DNA of 64,000 nt from Myxococcales bacterium (GCA_029862185.1 JAOTXX010000013.1:408-64407); one strand, 5' to 3'; shown: positions 26,371 through 45,007, numbered from the stretch's first letter. The notes: a model not told the origin generated them from the sequence alone. Made by a program: numbers and translations.

Positions 26371-27303
26371 TCAACAGGCCCGCACGCCGCTTGCAGCCCA
26401 AGAGACGTCGATAGGATGCAACCCTTCGTCTTTGCAGGCTAGCTCAAAGCTCTTGGCCGCATCCAGCTCGATGAAGAATGCGACCGCGACGTCTCCGCCG
26501 CCTGCACCGCACGGCTTTGCGCTCCCAGAAAACCCTGCTGCAAGCGCCGCCGTGCGCTCGAGCCGCACTTCGAGGATCGGAGCCCCAGCTGCGTCGCCCA
26601 GCGCTTTCATGGCCTCGCAGTACGCCGCGGCCTCCGCGACGACGCTCGTCGCGTTTCCAGCCTCGAAGGCGGATGCGAAACGCGCAGAGAGCTCGACCAG
26701 CCGCTCCATGCAAGCTCGGTACCGACTGGCGTCGTTGCGCCGAAGTGCCTTCACCTGTTTCACGAGCTCACTGGTCCGCGCGGCCTGACCGGTCCAGATC
26801 AAGCGGATGTGCAGCTCCTTCGGGCGCTCGAGCGCGCGCGTGTCCACCCGATCGTCCTTGCGCTCGAAGCGCAGAAGACCTCCGAAGGTCGAGGCTGCAA
26901 CGTCGACGCCGCTGCCCTGCGGCGCGATGGACGCATGGCCTTCGAATGCACAGGCGAAAAGTCGCTCCAAGGTGCCCCGATCCGCGAGGTCTTGTCCGTG
27001 GGAGGCGAATACGGCGCCGGCTGCTGCGGTCGCGGCAGCAGCGGATGAGCCGAGGCCGAGCTTGATCCGATCCTGATGCAGCTCCCTCGCGTCCACATGG
27101 AGCGACCGACCGACCGGTCCGAGCTCGGCCTGAGCCCGGCGAAGCGTGGCCTCGACCTCCGGGGACATCGTTTCGTGCTCGTCCCTCCAATCGACCCTCA
27201 CGCGTCGATCGACTGCCGCAACGACCGCCGGCGCGCCTTCGAGCACCGCGTACTCACCACAAAGGAGCGCCTTACCAGGGGCGCTGGCGCCCGTCGGCGT
27301 CAC
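26371..27303 (-). CDS. Phosphomevalonate kinase (GHMP kinase family)
   Basis: APGKALLCGEYAVLEG and the GHMP motif KLGLGSSAAA are present. Start taken at GTG 27303, which forms a GTGA overlap with the mvaD stop. Confidence 0.8.
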   Translation of the reverse strand: MTPTGASAPGKALLCGEYAVLEGAPAVVAAVDRRVRVDWRDEHETMSPEVEATLRRAQAELGPVGRSLHVDARELHQDRIKLGLGSSAAAATAAAGAVFASHGQDLADRGTLERLFACAFEGHASIAPQGSGVDVAASTFGGLLRFERKDDRVDTRALERPKELHIRLIWTGQAARTSELVKQVKALRRNDASRYRACMERLVELSARFASAFEAGNATSVVAEAAAYCEAMKALGDAAGAPILEVRLERTAALAAGFSGSAKPCGAGGGDVAVAFFIELDAAKSFELACKDEGLHPIDVSWAASGVRAC

Positions 27304-28289
27304 CGATGCACCTCGATGTCGGGCCCTGGCTTGGCGACCCAAGTTCGTGTCACGCCCTGCGTTCGGTCGAGTGCCTGGCGAACACGGCTCGCATCACCGA
27401 CTCCGCAAAGCGCCTTCACATGCGGCCCGGCGTCCATCGTCGCCCAGACCGATACACCGCGTTCCCGAAGCCCACGCACCGTAGCGAGCGCAGCCAGGGT
27501 TGCGGGCACCCAATAGAAGATCGGCGGCGTGGACATGATGGCGCAGCAATGAAAGGCGAGCGTGCTCTGCTCCATCGCCTCGCCAAGGGTGTCGAGCTCG
27601 CGCTCCTTGATCGCGCGTTTGATTTTGCGTGACCATTTGGGCGCCTGGTCGAGCCAGGCCTCATAGTAAGGCGAGGTCTTTCGTGAGCGCTCCATCCCTT
27701 CGGTGGATCCGACCTTCTTCTTACCGGGATCGGTCAAGGCAACCACCAACCTGAGATTCCAATGCCCGGGAGGCGCGATCGGCCTGGCTGCGAGGTCGGC
27801 ATCGCCTCGGTGGCCTGCGGGAAGCTCGACGAAGCCGCCGTAGATCGAGCGAGCCGCCGACGCGCTCGATGCGCGCGCCAATGCGCTGAGCCGACGCGCG
27901 TTGAATCGGATCCCAGCGGCCGCCGAGGCCGAGGCGGCAAGGGCGGCGAAGCCGGAGGCGCTCGAGGCGAGCCCTGCGGCCGTCGGAAAGTGATTGTGGC
28001 TGCTGACCTGCGCCTTTGCCCGTAACCGCGCCTCCCGGCGAACGCGGTCGAGCATGGCTACGACCCGAGCGGCCTCGGCCTCGGTCGCGCGCCTTCCGTC
28101 GAGCCTCACCAGGTCCGACGAAAGCGAAGGATCGAAGCGAACGCGGGTTTCGGTCACGAGCTGGTCGAGCGTGAGCGAGATGCTCGGCACCGCCGGGATG
28201 TTTCGCTTCACGTCGGCCTTCCCCCAGTACTTGGCGAGCGCGATGTTCGCGCAGGCCCGGGCGCTTGCCTCCGAGCTCGGCCCGCTCAC
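27300..28289 (-). CDS. mvaD: Diphosphomevalonate decarboxylase
   Basis: NIALAKYWGK, PTAAGLASSASGFAALA and TMDAGPHV are present. Start taken at GTG 28289, which forms a GTGA overlap with the mvk stop. Confidence 0.9.
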   Translation of the reverse strand: MSGPSSEASARACANIALAKYWGKADVKRNIPAVPSISLTLDQLVTETRVRFDPSLSSDLVRLDGRRATEAEAARVVAMLDRVRREARLRAKAQVSSHNHFPTAAGLASSASGFAALAASASAAAGIRFNARRLSALARASSASAARSIYGGFVELPAGHRGDADLAARPIAPPGHWNLRLVVALTDPGKKKVGSTEGMERSRKTSPYYEAWLDQAPKWSRKIKRAIKERELDTLGEAMEQSTLAFHCCAIMSTPPIFYWVPATLAALATVRGLRERGVSVWATMDAGPHVKALCGVGDASRVRQALDRTQGVTRTWVAKPGPDIEVHR

Positions 28290-29182
28290 GCGCTCACCTC
28301 CGCCACGAACGCGTCTTGCCCGAGCACTTCGCAAAGGCGCAGCGCCTGGTCCTGCTTGGGCGCGAGCGCAATCATGCAGCCTCCGCCGCCTGCACCCGTC
28401 ATCTTCGCACCCAGGGCCCCCGCCGCCCTCGCGGCCTGACACATTTCATCGAGCTTACTCGTGCAGAGCATGAGGGAGCTGAGGATCGTGTGATTCAAAT
28501 CGAGCAGTTGCCCAAGCGCGATGTGATCACCGGCCTCGATCGCGAGCTTTGCGTTGCGCACCAACACCTCGATCGCCTCGAAGGCTTTGTTCACGCGCTT
28601 GGGGTCATCCTCGAGCTGCCGCGCTACCGATGCGACCATCTCTTTGGTGCTCGAGGATTCGCCGCTGTAGCCGATCACCAAATGAAGCGGCTTGTTCGAG
28701 CGCAGAGGCTGCAACGGTTCGCCTTTGCGATAGAGCGCGACGCCTCCGACCGCCGACATTGCGTTGTCGATCCCCGATGGGTTCCCGTGGAAGATCCTCT
28801 CCCAGACGAGTGCCGCCTCCGCCAGCTCCGTTCGAGAGCGCTGGATGCTCAGCGCTTCATCGATCGCGTCGAGCGCGGCCACGCCAATCGCCGCGGAACA
28901 GCCGAGCCCAGCTCCGGCCGGAAGCTCGACCTCCGCGCTCACCTCGAGTGCGGGACGCTCCGGATAGAGCGCGAGCGCAGCCGCAAAAGCGCGCTCCAGA
29001 GGCTCGCCTCCCGAGGGGTCCGGCTCGATTGCCAAGCCCCAGGGCGAGAGCCGCAGGATGTTGCGCTCGGCCGTGCTGGCCGAGGCGGTGACGCCCCGCT
29101 CGATACCGACCGCGATCGCCGGGCAGCCATGAACGACCGCATGCTCGCCGAGCAGGATGACCTTGCCTCTTCCGAAGCCCAT
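28286..29182 (-). CDS. mvk: Mevalonate kinase
   Basis: GKVILLGEHAVVHG, PAGAGLGCSAA and GAKMTGAGGGGC are present. The ATG at 29182 shares one base with the upstream TGA (TGATG). The track's first codon is a TTG at 29185. Confidence 0.9.
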   Translation of the reverse strand: MGFGRGKVILLGEHAVVHGCPAIAVGIERGVTASASTAERNILRLSPWGLAIEPDPSGGEPLERAFAAALALYPERPALEVSAEVELPAGAGLGCSAAIGVAALDAIDEALSIQRSRTELAEAALVWERIFHGNPSGIDNAMSAVGGVALYRKGEPLQPLRSNKPLHLVIGYSGESSSTKEMVASVARQLEDDPKRVNKAFEAIEVLVRNAKLAIEAGDHIALGQLLDLNHTILSSLMLCTSKLDEMCQAARAAGALGAKMTGAGGGGCMIALAPKQDQALRLCEVLGQDAFVAEVSA

Positions 29183-30204
29183 CAACTCCCCCGATCGGTG
29201 AGCTGCCGCGTGACTTCTCCCAGAATTTGCTTGCCTCGTTCGTCGAAGGGGCTCGCAGCCAGCGCGCTCCGGGCCTCGTCGGCAAGGAAGCCGAGTCGCG
29301 CCTCGACCTCGGCTTTTGCCTCGACGAGCACCTCCGTCGCCGATGCAATCTCTTCATTGCTTGCGTCGGCGCGTCCCCAAACACCATGCAGCAGGGCTTG
29401 CTCTGCCTGGCCAGGCTCGAGTCGACGAAACGCTGCGACGACTGCATTGTGCTTGCCGTGCCGAAGGTCGTCGCCCGGCTTTCCCGTCTGAATCACGCTT
29501 CCGAAGGTTCCGAGCAGGTCATCGCGAAGTTGAAACGCGACCCCGAGCGGCGTCGACCAGTCGCGGAGCGCACGCATGCGGGCGGCGTCGGCGTTGGCGA
29601 GGATGCCCCCGAGCTCAGCGGGCCCGCGCGTCGTGTAGCTCCCCGTCTTCAAGTCGTGCATGCGCTCGACGTCTCGGTCGGTCATCAGGTCGAGCTGTTG
29701 CCCCGCAAATACTTCCTTTTGGATTCTCACGAATAGCGCAAGGCCTTCCTCCTGCCGTCCCTCGGGAAAGCGACCCTCGAGCAAGAGCTCCCATCCGAAG
29801 GCCGACGCCAAGTCGCCTGCGAGGATTCCAAGGCTTGCACCGAGGTGGTCGTGCCCATGTTTCTTCTGGAACGCGTAGTGGACAGCGGGCCCACCGCGGC
29901 GTTCGCAGTCTTCGTCCATCCAGTCGTCGTGAATCAGCAGATAGGTCTGCAGTAGCTCGAGCGCCGCGCCGACCGCGAACGTGGGGCCGACGTCGCTTGC
30001 TCCGCTCGCTGCTCTGTAGGCAGCAGCCGTCACAATCGGCCTCAGCCGCTTTCCTCCGCGCATCGTGAGGTCGCGAACCTCAGAGACCAGCTCGATCGCC
30101 CTTGGGGAAAGCAGCCTCGCTTCGTCGCACTTCGCCTCGAAAAACCGTTCGAGGATGGCATCGACCTGCTGGCGAATGCCTCCCATCCAAGACTCGAGTT
30201 CCAT
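29182..30204 (-). CDS. Polyprenyl diphosphate synthase (FPP/GGPP synthase family)
   Basis: First Asp-rich motif LLIHDDWMDED. The second motif region reads FQLRDDLLGTFG, so the final Asp of DDxxD is replaced by Gly. Start taken at ATG 30204; 30186 and 30294 are alternatives. Confidence 0.85.
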   Translation of the reverse strand: MELESWMGGIRQQVDAILERFFEAKCDEARLLSPRAIELVSEVRDLTMRGGKRLRPIVTAAAYRAASGASDVGPTFAVGAALELLQTYLLIHDDWMDEDCERRGGPAVHYAFQKKHGHDHLGASLGILAGDLASAFGWELLLEGRFPEGRQEEGLALFVRIQKEVFAGQQLDLMTDRDVERMHDLKTGSYTTRGPAELGGILANADAARMRALRDWSTPLGVAFQLRDDLLGTFGSVIQTGKPGDDLRHGKHNAVVAAFRRLEPGQAEQALLHGVWGRADASNEEIASATEVLVEAKAEVEARLGFLADEARSALAASPFDERGKQILGEVTRQLTDRGS

Positions 30205-30280
30205 TTGCCCTTGCGCCACGGTGTCAGTGTCCTTATTCCGAGCTACGTACACGGCAGGACGCCGCCGAGCAAGCAATGCG

Positions 30281-31321
30281 ATGAGCGCAGACATTGAGCA
30301 GAGAAAGGCCGATCATCTCGATCTGTGCGCGACTGACGAGGTCGCGTTTCGGCAGCGCACGACTCTTCTCGAATGCGTTCGGCTCGTGCACCAGTCACTC
30401 CCCGAAACCAGCTTCGACGCGATCGACACAAGGGTCCGATTGCTTGGGAAGGAGCTCCGCGCCCCACTGTTGATCGCTGCGATGACCGGTGGCCATGCGC
30501 GCGCGGCCGAAATAAACCAGGCCTTGGCGTCGATCGCCGATGAGCTCGGTTATGCGTTCGGCTTGGGAAGTCAGCGCGCCATGCAGAAGAGGCCAGAGAC
30601 GAGTTGGACCTACCAGGTTCGCAAGCATGCGCCCGGTGCGCTGCTCTTTGGCAATGTCGGAGTGGTTCAGGCCCGCGATCTCTCGACCAATGCGATCGCC
30701 GAAATGCTGGCCGAGGTCGGCGCCGACGCGCTGTGCGTACACATGAACCCCGCCATGGAGCTCGTTCAACCCGAAGGCGATCGCGACTTCAGCAGGGGCC
30801 TCGAGACCTTCCAGCGCCTTTGGGCCGAGCTCGGCGTGCCCATCGTCGCCAAGGAAACCGGCAGCGGGATTAGCCGGGAAGTTGCGGCCCGATTACGAGC
30901 GATTGGCATTCGTCACGCGGATACCTCGGGAGCGGGCGGCACTTCCTGGGTCGGTGTCGAGACCTTGCGCGCGGACGACGACGGCCGGGCGCTTGGCGAG
31001 GCGCTCTGGGATTGGGGTGTTCCGACGGCGGCCTCGGTTCGATACTGCGTCGAGGCCGGAATGACGACGATCGCCACCGGCGGCATCCGAACCGGCATGG
31101 ACGTCGCGCGCGCCATCGCCCTCGGCGCAAGCTGCGCAGGAATCGCGCGTAACGTTTATCAAGCGTTTCTCGAAGGTGGCGTGAGCGGCGCTCGCTCGTT
31201 CTTGCAGCGCATCGAGCGCGAGCTGCGCTCGATCATGTTGCTCTGTGGCGCCAAGACGATCGAAGAGCTTCAGCAGGCTCCGCGGGTGGTCACCGGCGAG
31301 CTAAGCGATTGGATCGCTTGA
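30281..31321 (+). CDS. fni: Isopentenyl-diphosphate delta-isomerase, type 2 (FMN-dependent)
   Basis: Start taken at ATG 30281 (MSADIEQRKADHLDLC). Motifs AAMTGG, VAKETGSGIS, GAGGTSW and ATGGIRTG are present. It is divergent from the mevalonate operon with a 76-bp gap. Confidence 0.9.
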   Translation: MSADIEQRKADHLDLCATDEVAFRQRTTLLECVRLVHQSLPETSFDAIDTRVRLLGKELRAPLLIAAMTGGHARAAEINQALASIADELGYAFGLGSQRAMQKRPETSWTYQVRKHAPGALLFGNVGVVQARDLSTNAIAEMLAEVGADALCVHMNPAMELVQPEGDRDFSRGLETFQRLWAELGVPIVAKETGSGISREVAARLRAIGIRHADTSGAGGTSWVGVETLRADDDGRALGEALWDWGVPTAASVRYCVEAGMTTIATGGIRTGMDVARAIALGASCAGIARNVYQAFLEGGVSGARSFLQRIERELRSIMLLCGAKTIEELQQAPRVVTGELSDWIA

Positions 31322-31332
31322 TCCCGTCTCCA

Positions 31333-32349
31333 TCAATCTTCGCCTTCGATCTCGGCCAGGGCTTCGGGCTCGGCTAGGACCTGGGCGGTCTCGCCGTCGT
31401 CGGACAGGGGTTCGTAGCGTAGCAAGTCCTCGACGCGCTCGAGCAATTCACCTTCGAAGTGCACTGAAAAGCGAGGCTCCAGCAGCTTCGTTCGGACACG
31501 CCAGACGATCGGATCTGCAGGATCACGCAGAACCACCGGCGTGGCACCGGCGAGCACCCAGGGCGAGCTGAGAATCGCGTCGGTCAGAGCTATGCGCACC
31601 TTGCCAGCGTCGCGGTAGCCTTCGAGCCGCACCACCACCTCGTGCTCGGCATCTGCGCCAGCGTCGTACACCATCGGCGCGCCCACCATCGCGCGATTGG
31701 GCACGGTGATCCGGTGGCCCTGTCCGTCACGCAGCCAGGTCGCACGAAGCGACCGGCCTTCCACGGTCCCCTGAAAGCCGTCGCCGGAAACCCACATCCC
31801 TTTCTTCACACGACGCTCGGCGGCCAGGATTGCGCCCGCGACCAGGTCTGCGAACAGGTCGCGAACGGACCAGCCGACGACGAGCGCGAGGACCGCCAGC
31901 GTCCAGAGAATCCAATTTTGGCCGCTCGGGACCACGGCGAAAACGATCGCCACGAGCAAAGAGAAGGCCGCGATACGGAGAACGAATACCAACGCGCCGA
32001 GCGCACTCCGTAGCGGAATGTTCTTGGTAATCCAACTGCGAGCGCGCTCCGCGATGAACAGGAACAGGCCCACGGCGAGCAACCAGAGAAATAGGGGCAG
32101 CACAGGGCTGCGCCCGCCCGCTGGGAGCGCCCCCTCGCTTGCAAGCCCATCCCATGGACGCGTGGCAATCCCGCCGGGAGGATACTGTGAAGGCGGTTCG
32201 GTCGAGGCTTCGAGCGGCTGCGCCTCAGTGTGAGATTCCGACTGTTTGGTCGATTCGTTCCTGCGGTCGAGCTGCTGCGCCATGCCCGGCGCCACGATCA
32301 GAGCGACTAGCACAAACGACAAGCCGTAGAATTCGAGCTTTGAGATCAC
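31333..32349 (-). CDS. MscS-family mechanosensitive channel
   Basis: Several TM helices are followed by the MscS beta-domain pattern VSGDGFQGTVEGRSLRATWLRDGQGHRITVPNRAMVGAPMV. The GTG start overlaps the upstream stop as GTGA. Confidence 0.8.
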   Translation of the reverse strand: MISKLEFYGLSFVLVALIVAPGMAQQLDRRNESTKQSESHTEAQPLEASTEPPSQYPPGGIATRPWDGLASEGALPAGGRSPVLPLFLWLLAVGLFLFIAERARSWITKNIPLRSALGALVFVLRIAAFSLLVAIVFAVVPSGQNWILWTLAVLALVVGWSVRDLFADLVAGAILAAERRVKKGMWVSGDGFQGTVEGRSLRATWLRDGQGHRITVPNRAMVGAPMVYDAGADAEHEVVVRLEGYRDAGKVRIALTDAILSSPWVLAGATPVVLRDPADPIVWRVRTKLLEPRFSVHFEGELLERVEDLLRYEPLSDDGETAQVLAEPEALAEIEGED

Positions 32350-35300
32350 AGCACCCAGCCCCGTTCTGCGAATATGCGCCCGACGACGCCTCGCAAATGC
32401 ACGGCGATTACGAACGTCCCCTCGCTCTCGTCGAGCAAACCCAAGTGCGCCAGCCTGCTGAGCTGCGCCTGTGCAGTGTTCACGTCGAGCCTGAACAACC
32501 TCGCCTGACCAGCGGCGTCCATCCAGCCCTCACGGGCAATCTGGTAGAGGTTGACGACGATGTCGTCTGGGAGTCGCCTGATCCGCGTGTACGAAGAAGC
32601 CGGGATCGGCCCGACGTGCACGATGTCGTCCTGGATTTCTCGGATGGAAGCTAGCCAAAGCCGAAGCGCATCGCGAACGAGGCCGCCCGTCGCTAAGTGC
32701 AACTCGTGAAAGTACTGATCGTAGGGCCGTCGAATCCGAGTGGCGCTTCTGGCGAACAGGCCTTCGATCGGCGAGCCGTCCCCACGGTCGAAGGAATGTT
32801 GAAATCCGCTCAAGCGATGCCTGGCAATGACGGCGGCTTGCAGCTCGTCCTCGCTCAAGGGGTCGAGCCGGATTAGCTCCGGGAACGCGTCGCGAAGTGG
32901 CGCCACGGTCGAGGCGAAGTTCCAAAAGAGCACGGCTCCATGCGTGAGCCATCGCCGGCGGCCCCCTTCCTCGATGATCCCTTTGACGAAGCGTCGAAGG
33001 GGGTCGAAGCCTCCTGGAGCCATCGACAGCATCCAGTGGAGTCCGTCGACGACCACGAGCTGACCTTCAGGAGAATCGTGGAAGATCGCATCGACATCGG
33101 CGACCGTCACCGGCGCGGTGAAGACCACGCGCTTCACGTTTTTCCAACGACGACTTCGCACGATCGCGCTCGAAACCGCCACTTTTCCGACGCCATCGAC
33201 ACCGATCAGTGCAACGGAGCGCAGGCGCCCTTTGACCTCACTCGAGAGTATCGATTCTGCACGCCGAATTTCCTGGTCGCGGCCGGTGAGCACATCGCCG
33301 GCCTCCATGGTGTCCGCGGCGAAAAGGCGGCGGTAGACCAGCGGGAGGTCTGTCCCCACGTCGGGCGCCGCGAAGGTCCCTGCAGATAGCTCTTCGGTCG
33401 GCAAGGCGCGGGTCAGGCCGAGACGCTCACTCCAACGCTCGAGCCGTTCTTCACCGAACAAAGCGCGGAGGCCGCCCCGAAGCTGGGCCTTGAGCCGCTT
33501 CGTCCGGGGCAATCGCTCCGCCTTGCTCATGATTCGAAGTCCACTTGCGGCGCGGCGCATCGCTTCGAGGCGTGATTTGCTGAAGGACCCCTCGGCGAGC
33601 TCCCCACGAAGCGTTTCCAGCGTTCCGAGCGCCGCGTCACGCATCTCGCGTTCGATCATCGCGGGCCAGCCGGCCGCTTCGGCGCGAATCTCTTCGAGCG
33701 AGTTGTAATTGCGTTCGAGCTGCCCGTAGACCATGTCGCGAAGCAGCGTGTGCATCTCTTCGGGAATCGCTTCGTCGTGGACGATCTCGAGCTCTGCCGT
33801 CGCCAGCTCCACGTTGAACGCGACGACGCGCTCGAGCTCTTGCAGCACATTGGCCAATGGCTGAATTCGTTCAGCCAACTCTTGCCGGCTGGCGAGCAGC
33901 TTCGGGGCCACACGGCTATCGATGTACGTGAGCACGACTTCCCGGAACGGGACTTCGACCTCGGGGAGCGCGGCCGGCAGACGCCACTCGCCGGTTTGAC
34001 GTTGACCCACGGTTACTCGGTAGCGAGGGGTCAGTCCGCGGCAGGCGTCGACCAAAGCATCGAGGAGCGGGGCGATCTTCGTTTCATCGCTCAAGTCTTC
34101 GTAGAGCTCGGTCGTGACACGTGCGGCTTCGCCGGCGGCCTTGCTCGTCGGCTCGGTGGACGATCGCAGAGCGGCCGCAAGCTCTTCTCCGGAGTAATCG
34201 CTCTCGAGCTCCTTGTTCAGCAGGGTCAGCGCCTTTTGAAGCGTGTCGCTCACTCGCTCGACTTGAGAGGTCGCCCGACGTTTCACCGTATTGGTCAGCC
34301 TGAGAACGTAGTCGGTGACGCTATCTTTGATCCGCGCTTCCAGTCCGAGGAGCTCGAGCTCCATCGCGAGCGAAGAGTACTCGGCCGAGCTGGCCTTCCG
34401 AAGGTTGGACACGTCCTTGGTGAGCGTCTCCATGGCCCGCATACGGTTTGCAAATCGACGGCTCGTGCGTCGCTCCCCGTTGCGCAGGTCGAGCGTTCCG
34501 AACGTCGGCAGGTCTTCCTTCATGTCGACGAAACCGGCCGCGAGGGCGGTCGCGGCGCGATGGGTGCCGTCCCCCGTGATCCGGACGGTTTCGTCGAGCG
34601 CCAGAGCGAGCTCTTCTTCGACGTCGTGACGAAGGCGAACCAACTGACCTTCGAGGTCAGATTCGGGGTTGGCGGAAATCTCTACGATGTCGTCATATCC
34701 GGCGATCACACCATCGAAGAGACTTCGCGTGCGAGCGGCAAGGTGCCGATCGGCTTCGACGAATAGCGCCGCGAGGGCCTCGAGCCGAGCAGGCGCATCA
34801 TACGATAGATGGAAGCGTCCCAACGCGCGCAGTCGAACCTCGCGGGTCGGCTGGCTCTGCCCGAGCGTCTTGCGCCAACTTCGCCTCAGCCGCAGGAAAC
34901 CACGCTGGAGCCGCTTCCGGAGAGAATCGCCTCCCGTGGTTTCGTAGCTGACGTCTTCATAGGGCGCCGCGACGATCAGGGGAAGCTCGTCGACCAGGCT
35001 GTCGACATTCTCGAGCATCGTTTCGGGTGTCCAGGTGAGCTTGGCAAGCGTGACCGACCTGCCGAGGACGATACCGCGCCAGTGGGCCGCCAAATCGGAT
35101 TGGGCGGAGCGAAGCATCGTCACGAGCTCGTCCCGTTCGGCACCGTCTTCGGCGCGCGCTTGAACCGTCAAGCGCCGGTGATGGCGGAGGAACTCGCGTC
35201 GTAGGTCTCGCAAGTACTTCCCGGCGTCGAGTTGAAAATCTCGCAGTGGTCCGGTCGACACCTCGCGAACGATGCTCTGTAGATCTCCCCCCAGGTCCTG

Positions 35301-36860
35301 CACGCGAGTATTGATCTCGGCGCTCTTCAACTGCAGCGGATCGCCCCAAAGGTTCTTCGCACCGACGTGCTCCGGCCAGGGCTCGAGTTGCTTGGCCGCA
35401 CCATCCTCGCCTTCGGGTCGCATCGAAGGCGGCCTCACGGACAAGTGCCTCGCCGGGCTGATCGACTTGCGGCTCGTCCGAGTTTCGCCAGCGAGGCTCA
35501 AGCCGAGCTTGAACATCACTGGCCCGACGAGCTCGTTGATCGCAACCGCGCCGATGATCAAGGTCTCGAGGGAGCGACCAAGCGCACCGAACTCTTTGCC
35601 GATGATGGCGGCGAGCAGGATCGACACGCCAGCTTGAGAGACGAAACCCATCCAGCCGAAATCCCGGGTCGCCTCATCCGCCTTGCCGATGCGGGCACCG
35701 ATCTTGGTCCCCGAAAAGATGGCGAAGCCGCGAACGGCGACAAGCCCCATCGCGAACAGAGCGACCTGGCGTAGCTCGTCGAGGTGGAGCTTGGCACCGG
35801 CGAGCGTGAAGAAGACGACGTAGACCGGCAGCGACAGGCGCTCGACCGTTTCGATGAGCCGGTGTCCCGTCTTCGAGAAGTTCGAAACGCCAAAGCCGGC
35901 GGCGAGGAAGACGAGAACTGGATCCCAGCCGAGCTGATCGCAGATGAAGGCGACGAGGTACACCACGCCGACGACGAAGATCAGAAGCTCCTGATTGACG
36001 TAACGGATGTAGAGCGCCATCAGGCCGCCGACGACCACCGCTCCGAACAGGATCGAGATCACGATGTGCTGGAGTAGGTAAGACGCGATTCCGCCTTCCA
36101 GCTCGCCCATGCCAACCTGCTGGGCGACGATGACCTGGGAGACGGCGAACGCCACGACGACGATCACGTCCTTTAGAACGACGGCGGACAAGACGTTCTG
36201 CGTCATCGGGCCCTTGGCCCTCGACTCCATGATGACGGCGATCGTCGCGGCCGGAGATGTCGCCAAGGACACCGAGGCCACCATTGCCCCGGCGGCGAGG
36301 GCCGCGGCCATGGGCAGGCCAGCGACTCCTGGGAAGCCGATGTAGGGGACAGCGCCCGAAATCAGCCAGAAAAACGCCGTCACGAGGACGCCGATCGACA
36401 GGACCTGTGCAGCGAGGATCGAGCCGATCGCGCGGAGCCCCTTCTTGAGACCTTCGAGCTTGAGCTCGCCGCCTGCTGTGAGCGCGATCAGCGCTACGGC
36501 GAGAGTGTCGAACAGGCTGAGTTGCTCGATCACCTCGTCATTGAGAATGCCATGGTCGAACGGCGCCGGAAGGCCAAAACCGCCCAGGACCTTGGCCAAT
36601 GAAGGACCGAAGACCAGGCCTGCGATCAGGTAGCCGGTGATGTGCGGCAAGCGGATCTGACCTACGAGCCCGCCGATCGTGTAGCTCGCGAGGACCACGA
36701 ATCCGAACGCGAGCATCCCGCTCGGGTCGAAGGGACGCTGGGCGACCTGTTCGAACTGGTAGAGCGCGACCATTCCGAAGAGCAGCAGCACGATGACGGT
36801 GATCTGCCGTCGCGCGTGCGTCTCTTCATCCGGTGGAGGCAAGCTGTATGAGCCGGTCAT
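32346..36860 (-). CDS. Giant fusion protein: N-terminal cation:proton antiporter (CPA/Kef-like) membrane domain, ~750-aa helical region, C-terminal degenerate P-loop (AAA_16/STAND-like) NTPase and winged-helix domain
   Basis: Start taken at ATG 36860 (MTGSYSLPPPDEE), sharing one base with the trkH stop (TGATG). The upstream 141 codons of the track ORF overlap trkH. The Na+/H+-exchanger signature HITGYLIAGLVFGPSL sits within about 12 TM helices. The C-terminus has LTGRDQEIRRAESIL, IGVDGVGKV, QLVVVDGLHW and a wHTH-like AQAQLSRLAHLGLLDESEGTFVI. Confidence 0.8.
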   Translation of the reverse strand: MTGSYSLPPPDEETHARRQITVIVLLLFGMVALYQFEQVAQRPFDPSGMLAFGFVVLASYTIGGLVGQIRLPHITGYLIAGLVFGPSLAKVLGGFGLPAPFDHGILNDEVIEQLSLFDTLAVALIALTAGGELKLEGLKKGLRAIGSILAAQVLSIGVLVTAFFWLISGAVPYIGFPGVAGLPMAAALAAGAMVASVSLATSPAATIAVIMESRAKGPMTQNVLSAVVLKDVIVVVAFAVSQVIVAQQVGMGELEGGIASYLLQHIVISILFGAVVVGGLMALYIRYVNQELLIFVVGVVYLVAFICDQLGWDPVLVFLAAGFGVSNFSKTGHRLIETVERLSLPVYVVFFTLAGAKLHLDELRQVALFAMGLVAVRGFAIFSGTKIGARIGKADEATRDFGWMGFVSQAGVSILLAAIIGKEFGALGRSLETLIIGAVAINELVGPVMFKLGLSLAGETRTSRKSISPARHLSVRPPSMRPEGEDGAAKQLEPWPEHVGAKNLWGDPLQLKSAEINTRVQDLGGDLQSIVREVSTGPLRDFQLDAGKYLRDLRREFLRHHRRLTVQARAEDGAERDELVTMLRSAQSDLAAHWRGIVLGRSVTLAKLTWTPETMLENVDSLVDELPLIVAAPYEDVSYETTGGDSLRKRLQRGFLRLRRSWRKTLGQSQPTREVRLRALGRFHLSYDAPARLEALAALFVEADRHLAARTRSLFDGVIAGYDDIVEISANPESDLEGQLVRLRHDVEEELALALDETVRITGDGTHRAATALAAGFVDMKEDLPTFGTLDLRNGERRTSRRFANRMRAMETLTKDVSNLRKASSAEYSSLAMELELLGLEARIKDSVTDYVLRLTNTVKRRATSQVERVSDTLQKALTLLNKELESDYSGEELAAALRSSTEPTSKAAGEAARVTTELYEDLSDETKIAPLLDALVDACRGLTPRYRVTVGQRQTGEWRLPAALPEVEVPFREVVLTYIDSRVAPKLLASRQELAERIQPLANVLQELERVVAFNVELATAELEIVHDEAIPEEMHTLLRDMVYGQLERNYNSLEEIRAEAAGWPAMIEREMRDAALGTLETLRGELAEGSFSKSRLEAMRRAASGLRIMSKAERLPRTKRLKAQLRGGLRALFGEERLERWSERLGLTRALPTEELSAGTFAAPDVGTDLPLVYRRLFAADTMEAGDVLTGRDQEIRRAESILSSEVKGRLRSVALIGVDGVGKVAVSSAIVRSRRWKNVKRVVFTAPVTVADVDAIFHDSPEGQLVVVDGLHWMLSMAPGGFDPLRRFVKGIIEEGGRRRWLTHGAVLFWNFASTVAPLRDAFPELIRLDPLSEDELQAAVIARHRLSGFQHSFDRGDGSPIEGLFARSATRIRRPYDQYFHELHLATGGLVRDALRLWLASIREIQDDIVHVGPIPASSYTRIRRLPDDIVVNLYQIAREGWMDAAGQARLFRLDVNTAQAQLSRLAHLGLLDESEGTFVIAVHLRGVVGRIFAERGWVL

Positions 36861-38350
36861 CAACGCCTCCAGAACCCCGGCAAGATGAGCGCAAAGAGGG
36901 TGAAGAACTCGAGTCGTCCGAGCAGCATGGCCATCGAGAAGAACAATTTGCTGCCCGCCGAGTACGCGGCGAAGTTGTCCGGCCCCACGTGAAAGGGTGC
37001 AGGACCCATGTTGGACAAGCAAGTCAGCATCGCCCCAAACGCCGTAGGCACGGGCACGCCTTCGACCAGCGTCACGAAAAGCAGACCGAAGCCGATGCAT
37101 CCCATGTAAATCAGAAAGAACGAAGCGACGTCCGAGAGAACCTGGTTGCCAATCGCGGCCCTCCCCATCCGTACGAGCTGTACCGTGGCGGGCCGGAAGC
37201 TCTTCTGGATTTGCGCGACCGCCTGTTTGCCCATCAAGACGGCGCGCTCGATCTTGATGCCCCCCGCTGTCGAGCCCGAGCATCCCCCGACGAACATCAA
37301 GAGGATCACGATGGTGAGCGCAGTCGAGCTGTACACGCTGTAGTCGTCGGTGCCATAGCCGGTAGACGAGACCGTGGTGGCCACCATGAAGAACGAGTAG
37401 CGGAACGACGTTAGCAGGTCGTCGTGCACGCTGAGGTTCAAAATCGTCAATACGACGACTGCGGCGGAGACGATCGCGACGTACGACCGGAACTCGATGT
37501 TCCGCAGGAGCGACCGCCAGTTGCCCGTGCGCAAAAGGCCATAGTAGAGCCCGTAATTCACGGTGCCGATCAACATGAAGCTCGCGATCACGTACTCGAC
37601 GGCGGCGCTGTCAAAGCCGCCGACCGAGCTGTTGAGCGTCGAGAAACCACCCGTCGACATCGTCGTGAACGCGTGACAGACGGCGTCGAACAGGTCGAGG
37701 CCGAGGATCTTGAGAAGGGCAATCTCGATGATCGTGAGCGCGCCGTAAAGCTTCCACAATGCGAATGAAGTCTCGGCAATGCGAGGCCTCAGACCCTCGG
37801 CCGTGGTTCCTGGCACCTCTCCGCGAAAAAGATGCTTGCCGCCCGCACCGAGATTCGGAAAGACCGCGACGAACAGAACGACGATGCCCATGCCTCCGAG
37901 CCATTGGATCAGGGAGCGCCAGAGCAGAAGTGGACGGGACAGACGCCCCTCGATGTCTGCGATCACCGTTGCGCCGGTGGTGGTCAGGCCGCTGACCGAT
38001 TCGAAGAACGCATCGTCAACGGACATGCCCGCTCCGAGGATGAAGGGAACCGCGCCGCACGCGCCCGCGGCAATCCAGATCAAGCTCACGGCAAGGAGCG
38101 CCTCGCGACGCGAGATTCGCTCTGACACGAACCTACTTCCGTAGAGAAAGGCCACCAGGCCGACGATCGAGACGATGATCGCCGAAAGCGCCAGCTCCGC
38201 GGCGCCGCCTTGTGGCCGACTCGGGTCGGGCGCGAACTGGTCCCAGATCATGCCCACCCCGGCACAAAGTGCGATCATCACACCAATTCCGAGCACGACG
38301 GCTCCGACCGGTCGAATCACGCCACGGAGGTCTCGCGATGGCGTGCTCAC
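36860..38350 (-). CDS. trkH: Trk-type potassium uptake protein TrkH
   Basis: 496 aa and polytopic, with the TrkH/KtrB pattern (TTGATV, MSTGGFS, SSTGYGT and GGCSGSTAGGIK selectivity-filter-like loops). The GTG start forms a GTGA overlap with the trkA stop. Confidence 0.9.
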   Translation of the reverse strand: MSTPSRDLRGVIRPVGAVVLGIGVMIALCAGVGMIWDQFAPDPSRPQGGAAELALSAIIVSIVGLVAFLYGSRFVSERISRREALLAVSLIWIAAGACGAVPFILGAGMSVDDAFFESVSGLTTTGATVIADIEGRLSRPLLLWRSLIQWLGGMGIVVLFVAVFPNLGAGGKHLFRGEVPGTTAEGLRPRIAETSFALWKLYGALTIIEIALLKILGLDLFDAVCHAFTTMSTGGFSTLNSSVGGFDSAAVEYVIASFMLIGTVNYGLYYGLLRTGNWRSLLRNIEFRSYVAIVSAAVVVLTILNLSVHDDLLTSFRYSFFMVATTVSSTGYGTDDYSVYSSTALTIVILLMFVGGCSGSTAGGIKIERAVLMGKQAVAQIQKSFRPATVQLVRMGRAAIGNQVLSDVASFFLIYMGCIGFGLLFVTLVEGVPVPTAFGAMLTCLSNMGPAPFHVGPDNFAAYSAGSKLFFSMAMLLGRLEFFTLFALILPGFWRR

Positions 38351-39687
38351 TCACCCCTCGGTCGAAATAGCCGCTCGACGGTCGCCCGCGCTTCCTTCGT
38401 GGTCATCAGGATGACGCGGTCGCCCGGGTGCACGACGTCTTTGCCGTGCGGAATGATGACGTCGTCGCCGTGAACGATCGCCGCCAACAGCGAGCCTCGG
38501 GGCAGATTCATGCGGTGCAGAGGCTTATTCACGGCGCGGCACTTCGGGCTTGCGGTCAGCTCGACGACCTCCGCCTGGCCGTCTTCGAGCACGGTCAGGC
38601 TGTGAAGGCCACCGCCTCGCGAGAAGCGAAGGATCTGGTCGGAGGCCACGGTGCGAGGCGAAAGAACGATGTCGATGCCGAGTTGACGGTAGATCGATGC
38701 GTAGTCCGCTCGCTGCACGATCGTGGCGGTTCGCTTGCAGCCAGCGCGCTGAGCGAGGAGCGCCGCCATCAGGTTGATTTCGTCTTGCTTGGTGACTGCG
38801 GCGAACAAGTCGTAGGTGCCGACCTCCTCCTCCTCGAGAAGCGCCCCGTCGGTTCCGTCGCCGTGGACGACTTCGATGCCCTGAAACTCGGCGCTGATCT
38901 CTTCGGCTACTTCGAGATCGCTTTCGATCATCATGATCGTCGCCTCTTGCTGCAACAGCTCACGGGCGAGCGCCTTGCCGACCACGCCTCCACCGACGAT
39001 GCAGACTCGACGTGCTTTGCGTTCCTTGCTGAAGAGCCGCTCCGCGGCAAGCACGCCTTCCGGTCGACCGATCAAGTACACGCGGTCGCCTTTGACCAAC
39101 ACATCGGCGCCGCCTGGCACGAAGAGCTCACCGTCACGAACCACAGCGCTCACCAGCGTGTGCGGCGGAAGCTCGAGCGAGGAAAGCGGTTTGTTGAGGA
39201 CGCGCGATTCGTCGAGGTCGATCTGCACGAGCTCGACCCGATCCTGCGCGAGGTCGACGACGTCCGAGGCGCCGTAGGATCGGGCAATGCGGCTGAGCTC
39301 TTGCGCGACGAGAACACGCGGATTGATGACGACGTCGACGCCGAGCAAGCCGTAGCGGATGCCCTCCGTCCACTCGGACCAGGCCGTCCCTTGGACACGA
39401 GCGACGACGTGCTTTGCGCCCAGCTGCTTGGACGCCAGCGCGGCGATCAGGTTCATCTCATCGTGGTTGGTGACGGCAACCACGAGGTCAGCGCGCCCTA
39501 CGCCGGCGATCTTCAGCAAGGTTTCGCTGGCGCCATAGCCGATTATCGACGCTACGTCGTAGTGCTCCTCGGCGTATTGAACCGCCTTGGCGTTCGAATC
39601 GACGGCGATGATGTCGTGACCCTCTTTGTCGAGGACGCTCAACAAGTGACGACCGACTTCGCCCAAACCTATGACGACGATGTTCAT
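38347..39687 (-). CDS. trkA: Trk system NAD-binding regulatory protein TrkA (two RCK/KTN units)
   Basis: Two Rossmann motifs are present (MNIVVIGLGEVGRHL and VCIVGGGVVGKALAREL). Length is 446 aa. An ATGA overlap joins it to the upstream CPA gene stop. Confidence 0.92.
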   Translation of the reverse strand: MNIVVIGLGEVGRHLLSVLDKEGHDIIAVDSNAKAVQYAEEHYDVASIIGYGASETLLKIAGVGRADLVVAVTNHDEMNLIAALASKQLGAKHVVARVQGTAWSEWTEGIRYGLLGVDVVINPRVLVAQELSRIARSYGASDVVDLAQDRVELVQIDLDESRVLNKPLSSLELPPHTLVSAVVRDGELFVPGGADVLVKGDRVYLIGRPEGVLAAERLFSKERKARRVCIVGGGVVGKALARELLQQEATIMMIESDLEVAEEISAEFQGIEVVHGDGTDGALLEEEEVGTYDLFAAVTKQDEINLMAALLAQRAGCKRTATIVQRADYASIYRQLGIDIVLSPRTVASDQILRFSRGGGLHSLTVLEDGQAEVVELTASPKCRAVNKPLHRMNLPRGSLLAAIVHGDDVIIPHGKDVVHPGDRVILMTTKEARATVERLFRPRGE

Positions 39688-41024
39688 TTGGCACTCACCT
39701 CGATCGATGTTTGGGAATCGCTATCCTTGAGCTCGCGCTGGATTTCTCCCTCGTCTGCAAGCAAGCCCCGGAGCAGTCGCGGTGCGATCAAGTCGTTAAG
39801 GATGACCGAGCCGAGCACCACGGAGTACGCGAGGTTTGCCGCCTCTCCCACATAGACGAGGCGGAAGGAAACTGCCATCGCAAGTGTGACGTCACCGTGT
39901 GCCAAAAGGCCGCGGAACAGATCTTTTCTCAACGTCGTGCCCCAGCCCGCGATCAGGCTTGCGACCCACTTTGCCCCGGTGCGTGCGGCCAGGAAACCAG
40001 CGAGCGCGATCAAAGTCGGCACCAGTGGGGTTGGTTGCCAAAGCGCACCGGCAAAAATCAGGAGCACGATCGCCATCGGGCGCTCGGTCGATTCGAGCGT
40101 GGCGTGCAAGAGCTGGCCGCCGCGGGCGAAATTCACCAGTACGAAGCCCATCGAAAGATTCACTGCCAAAGGCGAGAGTTCTAGGAAATATGCACCGCCC
40201 GATGCAAAGGCGATGATTCCCACCAGCGCTAGGAAGCGGGAGTTGTCCGATTCGTCGCCTGCCAAGAAGAGCGAAAACAGGAAGCCGAGCGCGGCGCCGA
40301 GCAGGACGGTCACCCAGGCCCACAGGGCGGGCGAGTAGTCTTGCGCTTGGGGCGCGTTCTCGTGAAACACGCAAAAAATCAGGCCGAAGGCGAGGATGAC
40401 CGCGATGTCGCCGAGGCGCGTTCCGTTTCGGAGCAGCGAAGCGAGCCGCCCGCTGATCTCGTAGCGCCTCGCGAGGAGGTCGTACGGCTCGGTCGAATCC
40501 GCGGCCGCAAAGCAGGCCAGCGCGGCAGCGCTCAGTGCTGCGCCGCGCGCTGTGGTCTCCATCCAGCCACCGTCGGTGAAGAAGTAGTAGGCGCCAAAGC
40601 CGACGGCGAGGCCGGGAAGCAGGTGATGCAGGAAGACCACGCGCCAGGTTGCCGGGTCGAGCTTTTGAAGGCTTGCGAAGTCGAAGTCGGTGCCTCGCAG
40701 TAAGCCAACCCAACCGGCTGCGAGCGCGATGATCGGTAGCAGGCCAGTCACGTTGTCGAACGCGTGGATTGCAGGAAAGGCTGGACCGAGCAGGAATCCG
40801 AGCAGGAGATACTCGGCACCGCTCACGACGAGGAAGCGACGTTGCAAGCGCTCCACCACGTTGTGGGCGAGCACGTACGCCACACCGATCACGACGACGA
40901 GCAAGACGACCGTGCCGAGCTCGCCCGCGATCCCAGGCGCACCCGGCCCGCTCGCCGCATGTGCGACGCCAGGCAATGTTGCCCAGACGAGCGCCACTGC
41001 GGTCAAGATCAGCCTCCCCGCCAT
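39684..41024 (-). CDS. Cation:proton antiporter (Na+/H+ exchanger family)
   Basis: 446 aa with a signal-like N-terminus, about 12 TM helices and the motif GAEYLLLGFLLGPAF. Confidence 0.8.
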   Translation of the reverse strand: MAGRLILTAVALVWATLPGVAHAASGPGAPGIAGELGTVVLLVVVIGVAYVLAHNVVERLQRRFLVVSGAEYLLLGFLLGPAFPAIHAFDNVTGLLPIIALAAGWVGLLRGTDFDFASLQKLDPATWRVVFLHHLLPGLAVGFGAYYFFTDGGWMETTARGAALSAAALACFAAADSTEPYDLLARRYEISGRLASLLRNGTRLGDIAVILAFGLIFCVFHENAPQAQDYSPALWAWVTVLLGAALGFLFSLFLAGDESDNSRFLALVGIIAFASGGAYFLELSPLAVNLSMGFVLVNFARGGQLLHATLESTERPMAIVLLIFAGALWQPTPLVPTLIALAGFLAARTGAKWVASLIAGWGTTLRKDLFRGLLAHGDVTLAMAVSFRLVYVGEAANLAYSVVLGSVILNDLIAPRLLRGLLADEGEIQRELKDSDSQTSIEVSAK

Positions 41025-41100: not shown

Positions 41101-41766
41101 CTAGTTTCGTAGCCCTTCGAGCACGATCGAGATCAGGCTCTTGGAGGTTTCGATCGGGTCCATCTTGACCTGCTTGCGCACCGAAGCCAAAGCGAGCGCC
41201 TCGACCGCGCCGAGGACCGCCAGTGCGCTTACACGCGGATCGGACACCGTCACAAAGCCCCGCTCGGCGGCCACCTGGCTCAGGGCCATCGCCCTCTGGT
41301 CGAGCTCGTTCGCCAGGTCGGAGATCGCTTGCCGCGCGATCGTTGCAGGGGCTCGCCGCTCCTGAAGGTAAAGGCACATCGCGTCAGGGTAGAGGGCGAG
41401 CGCACCGACCAAGCGATTGCCCAATTGCCCATATGTCGCGACCGCCTGGCTTCGATCGCTTGCTTGCCGAAGCTGCGAGTCGCACTCCTGTATCGCTTCG
41501 ACCGTGGTGCTGGCAATCGGCGAGATCACCGCCTCGACCAGATCGGCTTTGTCCCGAAAATAGCGGTAGAAATTGCCCTTCGCCATACCGGCCTCGCGGG
41601 CGACTTCGTCGATCGTCACCGCTTCGATGCCTCGCTGCAAAAAGAGCGAAAGACCGGCGTCGGTCAGGTCTTGGACGCGCTTGCGCCGGTTGAGATCTCG
41701 CTTGCCACCCAAAGCACCGGGCCGCTCCACTGGGCCGGCGCGCCTTGGCCTTCTTTCGTCGTCCAT
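41101..41766 (-). CDS. TetR-family transcriptional regulator
   Basis: Start taken at ATG 41766 (MDDERRPRR). The TetR HTH is IEAVTIDEVAREAGMAKGNFYRYFRDKADL. It lies 76 nt upstream of the ion-transport operon on the same strand. Confidence 0.85.
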   Translation of the reverse strand: MDDERRPRRAGPVERPGALGGKRDLNRRKRVQDLTDAGLSLFLQRGIEAVTIDEVAREAGMAKGNFYRYFRDKADLVEAVISPIASTTVEAIQECDSQLRQASDRSQAVATYGQLGNRLVGALALYPDAMCLYLQERRAPATIARQAISDLANELDQRAMALSQVAAERGFVTVSDPRVSALAVLGAVEALALASVRKQVKMDPIETSKSLISIVLEGLRN

Positions 41767-41849
41767 CGAGTTGCTCCTAACGGGTATCGAGCCGATTCGA
41801 TGCAGGATTATGGGGCACCCTCGACCCAGGTAAAGGGTCAAACACGAAA

Positions 41850-42943: not shown

Positions 42944-42950
42944 GAGGGAC

Positions 42951-45004: not shown

Positions 45005-45007
45005 ACG

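Follow-up and report, generated by a model that had tools for sequence, protein, structure and literature searches.

Cytoplasmic control of cation/proton antiporter (CPA) exchangers is known to be exerted by RCK/KTN, CNBD-like or calmodulin-type domains, and membrane tension is held to be the main factor that gates MscS-type channels. In this study, we analysed a gene, here called X, that lies in a 64,000-nucleotide stretch of DNA from a Myxococcales bacterium (GCA_029862185.1 JAOTXX010000013.1:408-64407; the window) and codes for a protein of 1504 amino acids (aa), in which a CPA-fold membrane domain is fused to a large soluble unit made up of a long helical region and a C-terminal AAA+ and winged-helix module. 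We show here that, in almost every genome, in all architectures and in at least two phyla, translation of the gene for this soluble unit is coupled to that of a small MscS-family gene. The near-constant pairing of the soluble unit with an MscS-like gene is indicative of a regulator of ion and osmotic balance that has not been described.

Like KefC and KefB, X consists of a CPA-fold membrane domain followed by a large C-terminal cytoplasmic control domain and is found in a K+ homeostasis setting, and the serine at position 3 of the motif in transmembrane segment 4 (TM4) of X is also present in the LSST sequence of Kef-like clades (PMC6181914). However, the Kef proteins carry a KTN/RCK domain where X has a novel helical region and the AAA+-winged-helix module, and the Q/N-D of TM5 in Kef proteins is K-D in X. 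The nearest solved structure to the membrane domain of X is that of SOS1/NHX7 (3e-8). SOS1 is a eukaryotic CPA1 protein whose regulatory tail in the cytosol is very long (~700 aa), contains a CNBD-like domain and is controlled by phosphorylation. In contrast to SOS1, which has ATDP and ND motifs, X has ATSP and KD, an AAA+-winged-helix tail and an MscS-like partner.

The C-terminal module of X has the same order of nucleotide-binding domain, helical lid and winged helix as ORC1/Cdc6 proteins and STAND NTPases (AAA_16, NB-ARC, MalT-like), and shares with them a GRExE-like sequence, LTGRDQEI, upstream of the P-loop. It differs from these proteins in that it scores below the AAA_16 and TIGR02928 cut-offs, has non-canonical Walker motifs and lacks sensor repeats, and instead of standing in a replication or defence context it is joined to transporters and paired with a channel. 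In MscK and bCNG, an MscS-type pore and an extra sensing element are present on the same polypeptide, in an osmotic or K+ context. X, however, is a separate, far larger upstream protein of another fold, and is fused to the channel only in one unverified protein (P0245, described below). A further parallel is offered by TrkA/KtrA and TrkH/KtrB, where the ion-conducting partner is controlled by a cytoplasmic nucleotide-binding protein that is encoded together with it; the X operon itself includes trkA and trkH. TrkA and KtrA have a Rossmann/RCK fold, whereas X contains an AAA+ module, so that a second, unrelated nucleotide-type module is encoded in the same operon. By analogy, X would work most like the KefC/SOS1-type transporters with control domains and the TrkA-TrkH pairs of regulator and channel. 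Seen as a transporter with a cytoplasmic control domain, X is a variant of a known theme; a module that gates an MscS-type channel would, if true, make it a new kind of system. In a full-text literature search, no AAA+/STAND module was found described with CPA, SLC12 or MscS proteins, and a 2026 systematic survey of bacterial STAND NTPases mentions neither antiporters nor mechanosensitive channels, which agrees with the original prediction, made from the DNA alone, that no characterised example of the architecture was known. As databases name the members of this family only 'cation:proton antiporter', 'KefB' or 'hypothetical protein', about 1000 conserved residues per gene are left unexplained.

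X is encoded on the minus strand at 32346-36860, with its ATG at 36860 and its stop codon at 32346-32348. The longest minus-strand frame spans 32346-37283, and the region above 36860 is occupied by trkH (36860-38350). The TGA of trkH and the ATG of X have one base in common (junction ...CGTTGATGACC... / ...GGAGGCGTTGATGACC...), and the TGA of X sits within the GTG start of the open reading frame (ORF) at 31333-32349 (CTGTGATCT, 3' end ...GGCTGGGTGCTGTGATCTCAAAG...). The single uninterrupted frame of four parts and the two overlaps, as described in the original prediction, were all found again on reading the sequence, as were the motifs quoted there: HITGYLIAGLVFGPSL at aa 73, LTGRDQEIRRAESIL at 1191, IGVDGVGKV at 1219, QLVVVDGLHW at 1267 and AQAQLSRLAHLGLLDESEGTFVI at 1463. 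In Pfam, Na_H_Exchanger matches aa 59-450 of X with 81 bits (E 1e-22), and no other family matches above E 0.01. The parts of the gene are as follows.

32346..36860, minus strand: whole gene X, with CPA domain, linker, helical region, AAA+ domain and winged helix (ORF; the same ~1500-aa protein in more than 100 assemblies)
35496..36815, minus strand: CPA-fold membrane domain, aa 16-455, ~12-13 transmembrane segments (Pfam Na_H_Exchanger; hydropathy; SOS1/NHX7 profile match)
36252..36263, minus strand: ATSP, aa 200-203, aligned with ATDP of the unwound TM4 in SOS1, with Ser for the usual Asp (profile alignment)
36168..36173, minus strand: K230-D231, in place of the ND/DD motif of TM5 (profile alignment, LKD against MND)
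35364..35495, minus strand: variable, probably disordered linker, aa 456-499, the fusion boundary (alignment consensus mostly 'x'; N-termini of stand-alone proteins)
33366..35363, minus strand: long region made up of helices only, aa 500-1165, the longest helix having 87 residues (AlphaFold2)
35154-35216, minus strand: invariant basic helix YLRDLRREFLRHHRRL, which opens the helical region (orthologue alignment)
32649..33365, minus strand: AAA+/STAND-like nucleotide-binding domain and helical lid, aa 1166-1404 (AlphaFold2; Foldseek; ClpC1 D1 profile match; AAA_16 20.6 bits)
33180..33206, minus strand: Walker A-like IGVDGVGKV, aa 1219-1227 (orthologue alignments)
33033..33062, minus strand: Walker B-like QLVVVDGLHW, aa 1267-1276 (orthologue alignments)
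32643..32687, minus strand: GGLVRDALRLWLASI, aa 1392-1406, sensor-2-like lid motif, the most conserved stretch of the module (invariant alignment block)
32349..32648, minus strand: C-terminal winged helix, aa ~1405-1504 (helix-helix-helix-strand-strand in the model; ORC1/Cdc6 and RuvB alignments)

Relatives of X were sought with its 1034 non-membrane residues (aa 471-1504), which gave 161 proteins. About 100 of the best 120 of these have a length of 1494-1557 aa and a Na_H_Exchanger domain, with identities from 95% down to 47%; the sequences stem from assemblies of NCBI, ENA, JGI and Logan, and the organisms are Polyangiales, Sandaracinaceae and further Myxococcota. When one genome per GTDB species was scanned, 62 X loci were obtained, all in metagenome-assembled genomes (MAGs) of Myxococcota, and in more than 40 of them (those with enough flanking sequence) the CPA domain, helical region and AAA+ domain are encoded in a single frame. 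Because the same one-frame architecture is kept across independent assemblies, the fusion is a conserved gene and not an assembly join, and X is confirmed as a genuine single protein. The original prediction had also raised the question whether orthologues keep the fusion and its trkA-trkH neighbourhood: the ~1500-aa fusion is kept, and the Trk order is the usual one in Myxococcota.

The gene that overlaps the end of X encodes a channel protein.

31333..32349, minus strand: MscS-family channel gene, 338 aa, GTG start overlapping the X stop codon (Pfam MS_channel_2nd)

The MS_channel_2nd match has 42.3 bits against a cut-off of 20.2 and is preceded by three transmembrane segments, plus a signal-like segment at the N terminus. 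The adjacency of the two genes was counted in the fetched loci with at least 1.5 kb of sequence downstream of X (n=57), using tblastn with the MscS-like protein of the window. An MscS-like gene lies directly downstream of X in 54 of the 57 loci by this search and, by Pfam, in one further locus (L068), that is, in at least 55 of 57, and the MscS frame is already open at the X stop codon in 53 of the 54 tblastn-positive loci. The same arrangement, with the MscS-like gene directly after the soluble module, was seen in L069, L071 and L073.

In one protein, the two partners may have become a single polypeptide. P0245 (1641 aa; JGI 3300048101, a contig of 18087 nt) has a winged helix that ends in ...LVERGWI and is followed by a Pro-rich linker, one hydrophobic segment and then the MscS TM3, beta and alpha-beta domains, with 39% identity to the MscS-like protein of the window; no separate MscS-like gene comes after it. 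The topology is feasible and P0245 may be a genuine X-MscS fusion, a lead that is unverified at the DNA level. A second candidate, P0144 (2083 aa, from the CPA domain through to MS_channel_2nd), was rejected as a frameshift artefact: in L060 (8567-14866, a called ORF of 2099 aa), the AAA+ half passes from frame 2 to frame 3 near 12610, and the ORF stays in frame 2 into the MscS-like sequence. This MAG is, we believe, a long-read assembly. The case is a caution for automated surveys of domain architecture.

An exhaustive profile search gave 2096 homologues (E<=1e-3), 275 of them with E<=1e-30, and the best 150 were inspected. Among these 150 are about 15 stand-alone proteins of ~1000 aa, which have their own Met and a short leader and start just ahead of the WGxP motif that in X comes after the linker. 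The soluble unit thus occurs in three architectures: stand-alone (X'), fused to a CPA domain and, in Bacteroidota, fused to an SLC12-type permease. The following loci illustrate this.

L004: trkH (C-terminus LLGRLEFF...WRR), stand-alone X', MscS-like gene
Contig of P0148, and L005: TrkA, TrkH, stand-alone X', MscS-like gene
L068 and L070: X' and MscS-like gene, no Trk or CPA gene, housekeeping surroundings, GC content 50% and 39%
P0277 (MAG named 'Bacteroidetes bacterium') and P0278: AA_permease and weak SLC12 match at the N terminus, AAA+-winged helix at the C terminus, 1727 aa, then an MscS-like gene
P0275 (38% GC, ~21% identity to X), locus L071: CPA-like paralogue, CPA-fused X, MscS-like, TrkH, TrkA, PALP, with the gene set of the window operon thus rearranged

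The genes for the SLC12-type fusions (L069 2129-7312, L073 265-5448) have canonical GKT and ED motifs and are each followed by an MscS-like gene of 256-259 aa. L070 also holds a gene with a type IX secretion system (T9SS) tail, presumably typical of Bacteroidota. The soluble unit, that is the helical region together with the AAA+-winged-helix module, is an independent, mobile and conserved evolutionary core. The original prediction had read X functionally as an ion transporter gated by, or signalling through, a (pseudo)NTPase switch. A switch is still a fitting description, but this functional reading is in need of revision: the soluble part is not peculiar to this antiporter, as the stand-alone and SLC12-fused forms show.

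The AlphaFold2 model of the C-terminal module (aa 1166-1504; predicted local distance difference test score (pLDDT) 81, predicted template modelling score (pTM) 0.80) shows a nucleotide-binding domain, a helical lid and a winged helix in this order, with the last ~100 residues forming three helices and a hairpin in the pattern of a winged helix. Foldseek aligned essentially the whole model with Drosophila and archaeal ORC1/Cdc6 structures (9e-9 to 2e-7), and also found many RuvB structures, Hda and the NB-ARC cores of the proteins Roq1, RPP1 and MLA13. On the sequence level, the similarities are much fainter: Pfam AAA_16 reaches 20.6 bits, below its cut-off of 32.6, and in NCBIfam orc1/cdc6 (TIGR02928, cut-off 181) and ClpB reach 13-15 bits. 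The likeness to ORC1/Cdc6 is therefore one of fold and not of family membership. A profile of 13 sequences of the module matches the Walker A region of ClpC1 D1 (E 5e-4). The homologue P0283 lies above the cut-offs of both AAA_16 (35.4 bits) and nSTAND1 (28.1 against 27.1), and the sequence link of X to AAA_16/STAND would be one of transitive homology only, via this protein. The GRExE-like sequence VLTGRDQEI precedes the P-loop, with R1194 invariant and G1193 kept in at least 90% of the sequences; we take a motif of this type to be a mark of the AAA_16/STAND family. Similarly, the lid motif GGLVRDALRLW presumably resembles the sensor-2 box or GDAR motif of ORC/Cdc6 proteins. Sub-threshold winged helix-turn-helix (wHTH) matches on the last stretch of X were to EutK, MarR and Csa3, and in P0275 to TFIIE_alpha. 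No sensor repeat domain (TPR, WD40 or LRR) follows the winged helix, since X ends four residues after its last predicted helix. An AAA_16/STAND-like module with a terminal wHTH had been read from the sequence, and the C-terminal region is indeed a P-loop/wHTH module by its predicted structure, matching ORC1/Cdc6, RuvB and NB-ARC over essentially its full length, with the Pfam AAA_16 match staying below threshold.

The original prediction had also pointed out that both P-loop signatures of X are off-consensus, and this decay was found again in the orthologues and across the family. All of 33 orthologues have DGVGK, and at least 90% of them have G1220; the position after the lysine, Ser/Thr in a canonical GK[ST], is taken by A, V, S or G. 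The Asp position of Walker B varies between D, N, S and E even in close relatives of X, which itself has VVVDG and not hhhhD[DE]. R1194, the sensor-2 arginine R1396 and the block GGLVRDALRLWLAS are invariant in the same 33 sequences. A table of motifs was then compiled for 166 modules from representatives at 50% identity. The Walker A lysine is kept in 82 of the 166 modules and is followed by Ser/Thr in 37; an acidic Walker B is present in 73 and the sensor-2 arginine in 71. Despite this decay of the Walker motifs, LPxVYRRLF, ARHxxSG and GGxxxDALxLWxAS persist across the 166 modules. A distant branch of low GC content (P0261, P0264, P0275-P0278) has a canonical Walker A in all members (GSGKT, GTGKT, GSGKS or NSGKT), and four of these six (P0261, P0264, P0277 and P0278) have an acidic Walker B, the residue being Ile in P0275 and Asn in P0276. 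A profile word-index search to widen this branch gave only seven matches, mostly fragments. Because GKT and an acidic Walker B are retained in distant members, the module probably started out as an active ATPase switch. The simplest reading of these sequences would be that this switch turned into a pseudo-ATPase in most Myxococcota, with the X clade as an intermediate, and since the Walker motifs decay across the family '(pseudo)NTPase switch', as the module had been called, is an apt label. Within X, the AAA+-winged-helix module is the most conserved segment, with a mean column identity of 67%, against 54-56% in the full-length alignments A1 and A4.

The membrane domain is of the CPA fold, with 81 bits against the curated Na_H_Exchanger (PF00999) cut-off of 26.2 and ~12-13 hydrophobic segments within aa 16-450. 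A profile of this domain matched a single protein among solved structures, the plant SOS1/NHX7; this match was reached by profile search only, as phmmer of the domain against the PDB gave none, and no solved Kef or NapA structure was matched by the profile at E<=0.1. S202, P203, D231 and R377 do not vary in the alignment, and K230 is found in at least 90% of the sequences; P0275, with its ~21% identity to X, shares TS and LKD. The eight-position CPA motif of Masrati et al. (PMC6181914) provides a framework for these positions. In X, positions 1-4 read A-T-S-P, position 5 is not Glu, and positions 6 and 7 are Lys and Asp. D231 corresponds to the conserved Asp of position 7 in TM5 and aligns with the Asp of the SOS1 ND motif, whereas S202 at position 3 and K230 at position 6 are unusual, the usual residues being Asp in most Na+ clades and Asn/Asp/Gln, respectively. 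Serine at position 3 is the residue shared with the Kef-like clades (PMC6181914), and for lysine at position 6 no description was found in the literature. R377 would, from the order of the helices and not from a structure alignment, be position 8 in TM10. The ion site of X would then consist of one acid and two bases, which is atypical for a cation/proton exchanger, and with K230 and R377 near a single Asp and the TM4 Asp absent the domain may not be a standard cation/H+ exchanger. The Lys-Asp site is a natural variant of the ND/DD motif, which is central to models of CPA electrogenicity. Of the 'CPA/Kef-type membrane domain' with about 12 transmembrane helices first proposed, the CPA fold and the number of segments (12-13) hold; the Kef type is unclear, as the nearest solved structure is SOS1/NHX7 and the ion motif is atypical.

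Between the membrane domain and the module lies the helical region (aa 500-1165), which was modelled by AlphaFold2 with a pLDDT of 87.3 and a pTM of 0.76 as a set of long helices with few short strands; it contains 97 Arg+Lys and 107 Asp+Glu. In Pfam and NCBIfam, nothing matches aa 500-1165 even at E<=10, RCK/KTN included, and no TrkA_N, TrkA_C or RCK domain was found in X, either in the Pfam scan of the full protein, in which the neighbouring TrkA gave 159 bits, or at this level on isolated regions. Foldseek found nothing significant for the region in the PDB (best E 0.23) or in BFVD (best E 0.02), the matches being generic long-helix proteins. In the predicted structure, the ~670-aa region is elongated and of no known fold; that it is helix-rich and free of KTN/RCK, as originally noted, agrees with the all-helical model. 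An internal duplication of the region was considered and rejected (hhalign probability 15%).

What we say about the function of X is inferred from sequence, predicted structure and gene context. The explanation that we tentatively favour is that the soluble unit is a regulator or scaffold which engages the MscS-like channel and the fused transporter, with a switch that is at most nucleotide-bound. According to this explanation, the unit would act in the cytoplasm on ion and osmolyte flux, docking on, or assembling with, the MscS-like channel made from the same mRNA and, where it is fused, controlling the attached transporter as well. In this way, K+ uptake by TrkAH, cation/proton exchange and emergency solute release might be co-ordinated. 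As the Walker A lysine and sensor-2 arginine are invariant in the X clade and the Mg-ligating Ser/Thr and the catalytic acid appear to be lost, the module of X most likely binds nucleotide, or just holds a conformation, without hydrolysis, that is, it may serve as a pseudo-ATPase switch.

Several points weigh against this explanation. The tie of X to the MscS-like channel, to TrkH and to TrkA consists of gene order, overlaps and one unverified fusion (P0245), and P0144, which also looks like an X-MscS fusion, arises from a frameshift. Two of the 57 loci (L020 and L055) have no MscS-like gene downstream of X. The explanation does not account for the 670-aa helical region. The Walker A lysine has been lost in about half of the family representatives, and because of this nucleotide is possibly irrelevant in many lineages. 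In addition, the gene context comes from ~70 loci, most of them of one phylum, and the best 150 of the 2096 homologues are the basis of the statements on the family.

A bolder form of the proposal, which is possible but which we hold with less confidence, is that the protein of helical stalk and ORC/STAND-type nucleotide-binding and winged-helix parts forms, with its MscS partner, an unrecognised two-gene module for ion and osmotic homeostasis across phyla, in which the switch would directly gate or assemble the channel and, when fused, would also gate a secondary transporter (CPA in Myxococcota, SLC12-type in Bacteroidota). If true, the control of channels and transporters would here follow a new principle, and this would be a housekeeping use of a STAND/ORC switch that is neither immune nor replicative, with a natural series from active ATPase to pseudo-ATPase. 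An AAA+/STAND switch on a long stalk that is encoded alongside an MscS-like channel and is joined to transporters of two unrelated families would amount to a different logic of turgor and K+ control, and would take STAND/ORC-like switches past replication, transcription and immunity. The family also offers matched active and decayed versions of the P-loop for probing what such a switch requires.

Two other explanations appear unlikely, to a similar degree. The first is that the soluble unit is an active AAA+ machine which hydrolyses ATP, for instance to assemble or insert the MscS-like channel or the transporters or to control their quality. This would be consistent with the canonical Walker A of the distant branch and the acidic Walker B in four of its six members, with the scores of P0283 above the AAA_16 and nSTAND1 cut-offs and with the ClpC-like similarity around the P-loop. 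However, hydrolysis cannot be the conserved function, because the lysine and the acidic Walker B are kept in only 82 and 73 of the 166 modules while other motifs are conserved; the X clade itself is without Ser/Thr after the lysine and varies in its Walker B acid, and there is no conserved Arg at the presumed Box VII (consensus VAPLxDAFPE, a position that was mapped by inference). The second is that the tail is purely structural, an anchor or spacer that, for instance, localizes or clusters the transporter, and that the link to MscS reflects no more than a shared osmotic-stress regulon. A long, rod-like helical region with no catalytic signature and a widely decayed P-loop are what such a tail might look like, yet the AAA+-winged-helix module is the most conserved segment of X, the X and MscS-like genes overlap, and their pairing outlasts changes of fusion partner, gene order and phylum.

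Less probable than these is a role as transcription factor, in which the tail would bind DNA via its winged helix, membrane-tethered in X and free in the stand-alone forms, and report the status of the transporter or of ions in the manner of CadC/ToxR-type or ORC/Cdc6 proteins. The predicted terminal winged helix, with its weak MarR, EutK and Csa3 wHTH matches, and the similarity of the module to DNA-bound ORC1/Cdc6 structures speak for this role. A membrane-tethered transcription factor had been suggested in the original prediction and is the weaker of the options given there: untethered forms exist, the winged helix in STAND/RuvB-type modules is structural and reads no DNA sequence, and that of X is close to neutral, without lysines and with a net charge of about +1. 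Moreover, a dedicated TetR gene lies just upstream, the near-constant genomic partner is a channel gene and not a set of regulated targets, and a tether of 12 transmembrane segments with a stalk of ~130 Å would be an odd route to DNA.

That X belongs to an anti-phage or conflict system, with a STAND-type sensor and the transporter and channel as membrane-perforating effectors, is very improbable. The core of nucleotide-binding domain, lid and winged helix is STAND-like, relatives show weak nSTAND1 and nSTAND3 matches, and membrane effectors are common in abortive infection; against this, PADLOC found nothing with the full protein and, with the C-terminal module alone, only a weak Csa3 wHTH match (E 0.011), a sensor repeat domain is lacking, the gene order with trkA/trkH and core metabolic genes holds from 95% to ~21% identity, and the neighbours are housekeeping genes with no defence island. 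Finally, the idea that an assembly error or frameshift has joined two genes into the 1504-aa frame can practically be dismissed, for although such artefacts are known in the family (P0144 in L060) and the soluble part also occurs alone, the GC content is even along X (0.60-0.66) and the many full-length relatives and GTDB loci with the one frame come from different projects and sequencing technologies.

The operon to which X belongs is read from the minus strand, and all four of its junctions overlap, by 1-4 nt. Upstream of X it contains the following genes, and it is preceded by a gene for a regulator.

36860..38350, minus strand: trkH, 496 aa, stop codon sharing one base with the X start (Pfam; synteny)
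38347..39687, minus strand: trkA, 446 aa, two TrkA_N and a TrkA_C domain, 4-nt overlaps with both neighbours (Pfam; synteny)
39684..41024, minus strand: first gene of the operon, 446-aa polytopic membrane protein, divergent paralogue of the X CPA domain (BLASTP 25%, E 3e-7)
41101..41841, minus strand: TetR-family regulator gene, 76 nt upstream of the operon (Pfam TetR_N)

With TrkH, TrkA and MscS as its neighbours by Pfam, X is translationally embedded in a Trk operon, as first described. The usual order in Myxococcota is CPA-like paralogue, TrkA, TrkH, X and MscS-like gene; L048, L056 and L061 are without Trk genes. The first gene of the operon is without a match in Pfam or NCBIfam, and its product carries GD in place of the KD of X; such a CPA-like paralogue is conserved upstream of trkA or of X in most loci, also in the distant L071. 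The TetR gene is a candidate regulator, possibly a repressor, of the cluster, and precedes it in L002 and L003 as well but not in L001. A search of the 64-kb window for riboswitches or other RNA control, such as a c-di-AMP riboswitch, gave no Rfam family at gathering score, and promoter and terminator scans gave no more than chance.

The MAG HK-STAS-MYXO-29 (L055 and L066) has two copies of X, one of which lies in a full Trk/MscS-like cluster and the other of which has no CPA-like, Trk or MscS-like gene within 10 kb. A gene for a pyridoxal-phosphate enzyme (PALP) follows the cluster in L001 (14095-15147), L002 (14146-15213) and L071 (12808-13758), but not in the window. The neighbourhood of X is one of core metabolism, and is neither a mobile element nor a defence island. 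On the plus strand, the genes at 41987-47280 encode lipoyl synthase, 2-oxoacid dehydrogenase E1 alpha, E1 beta and E2, and a MutY-like glycosylase. Downstream of the operon lie the isoprenoid genes for diphosphomevalonate decarboxylase (27300-28442, minus strand) and polyprenyl synthetase (29182-30294, minus strand), and a gene for an FMN-dependent dehydrogenase-type protein (30065-31321, plus strand). The longest ORF of the latter overlaps that of the polyprenyl synthetase by ~230 nt on the opposite strand, and one of the two probably starts further in.

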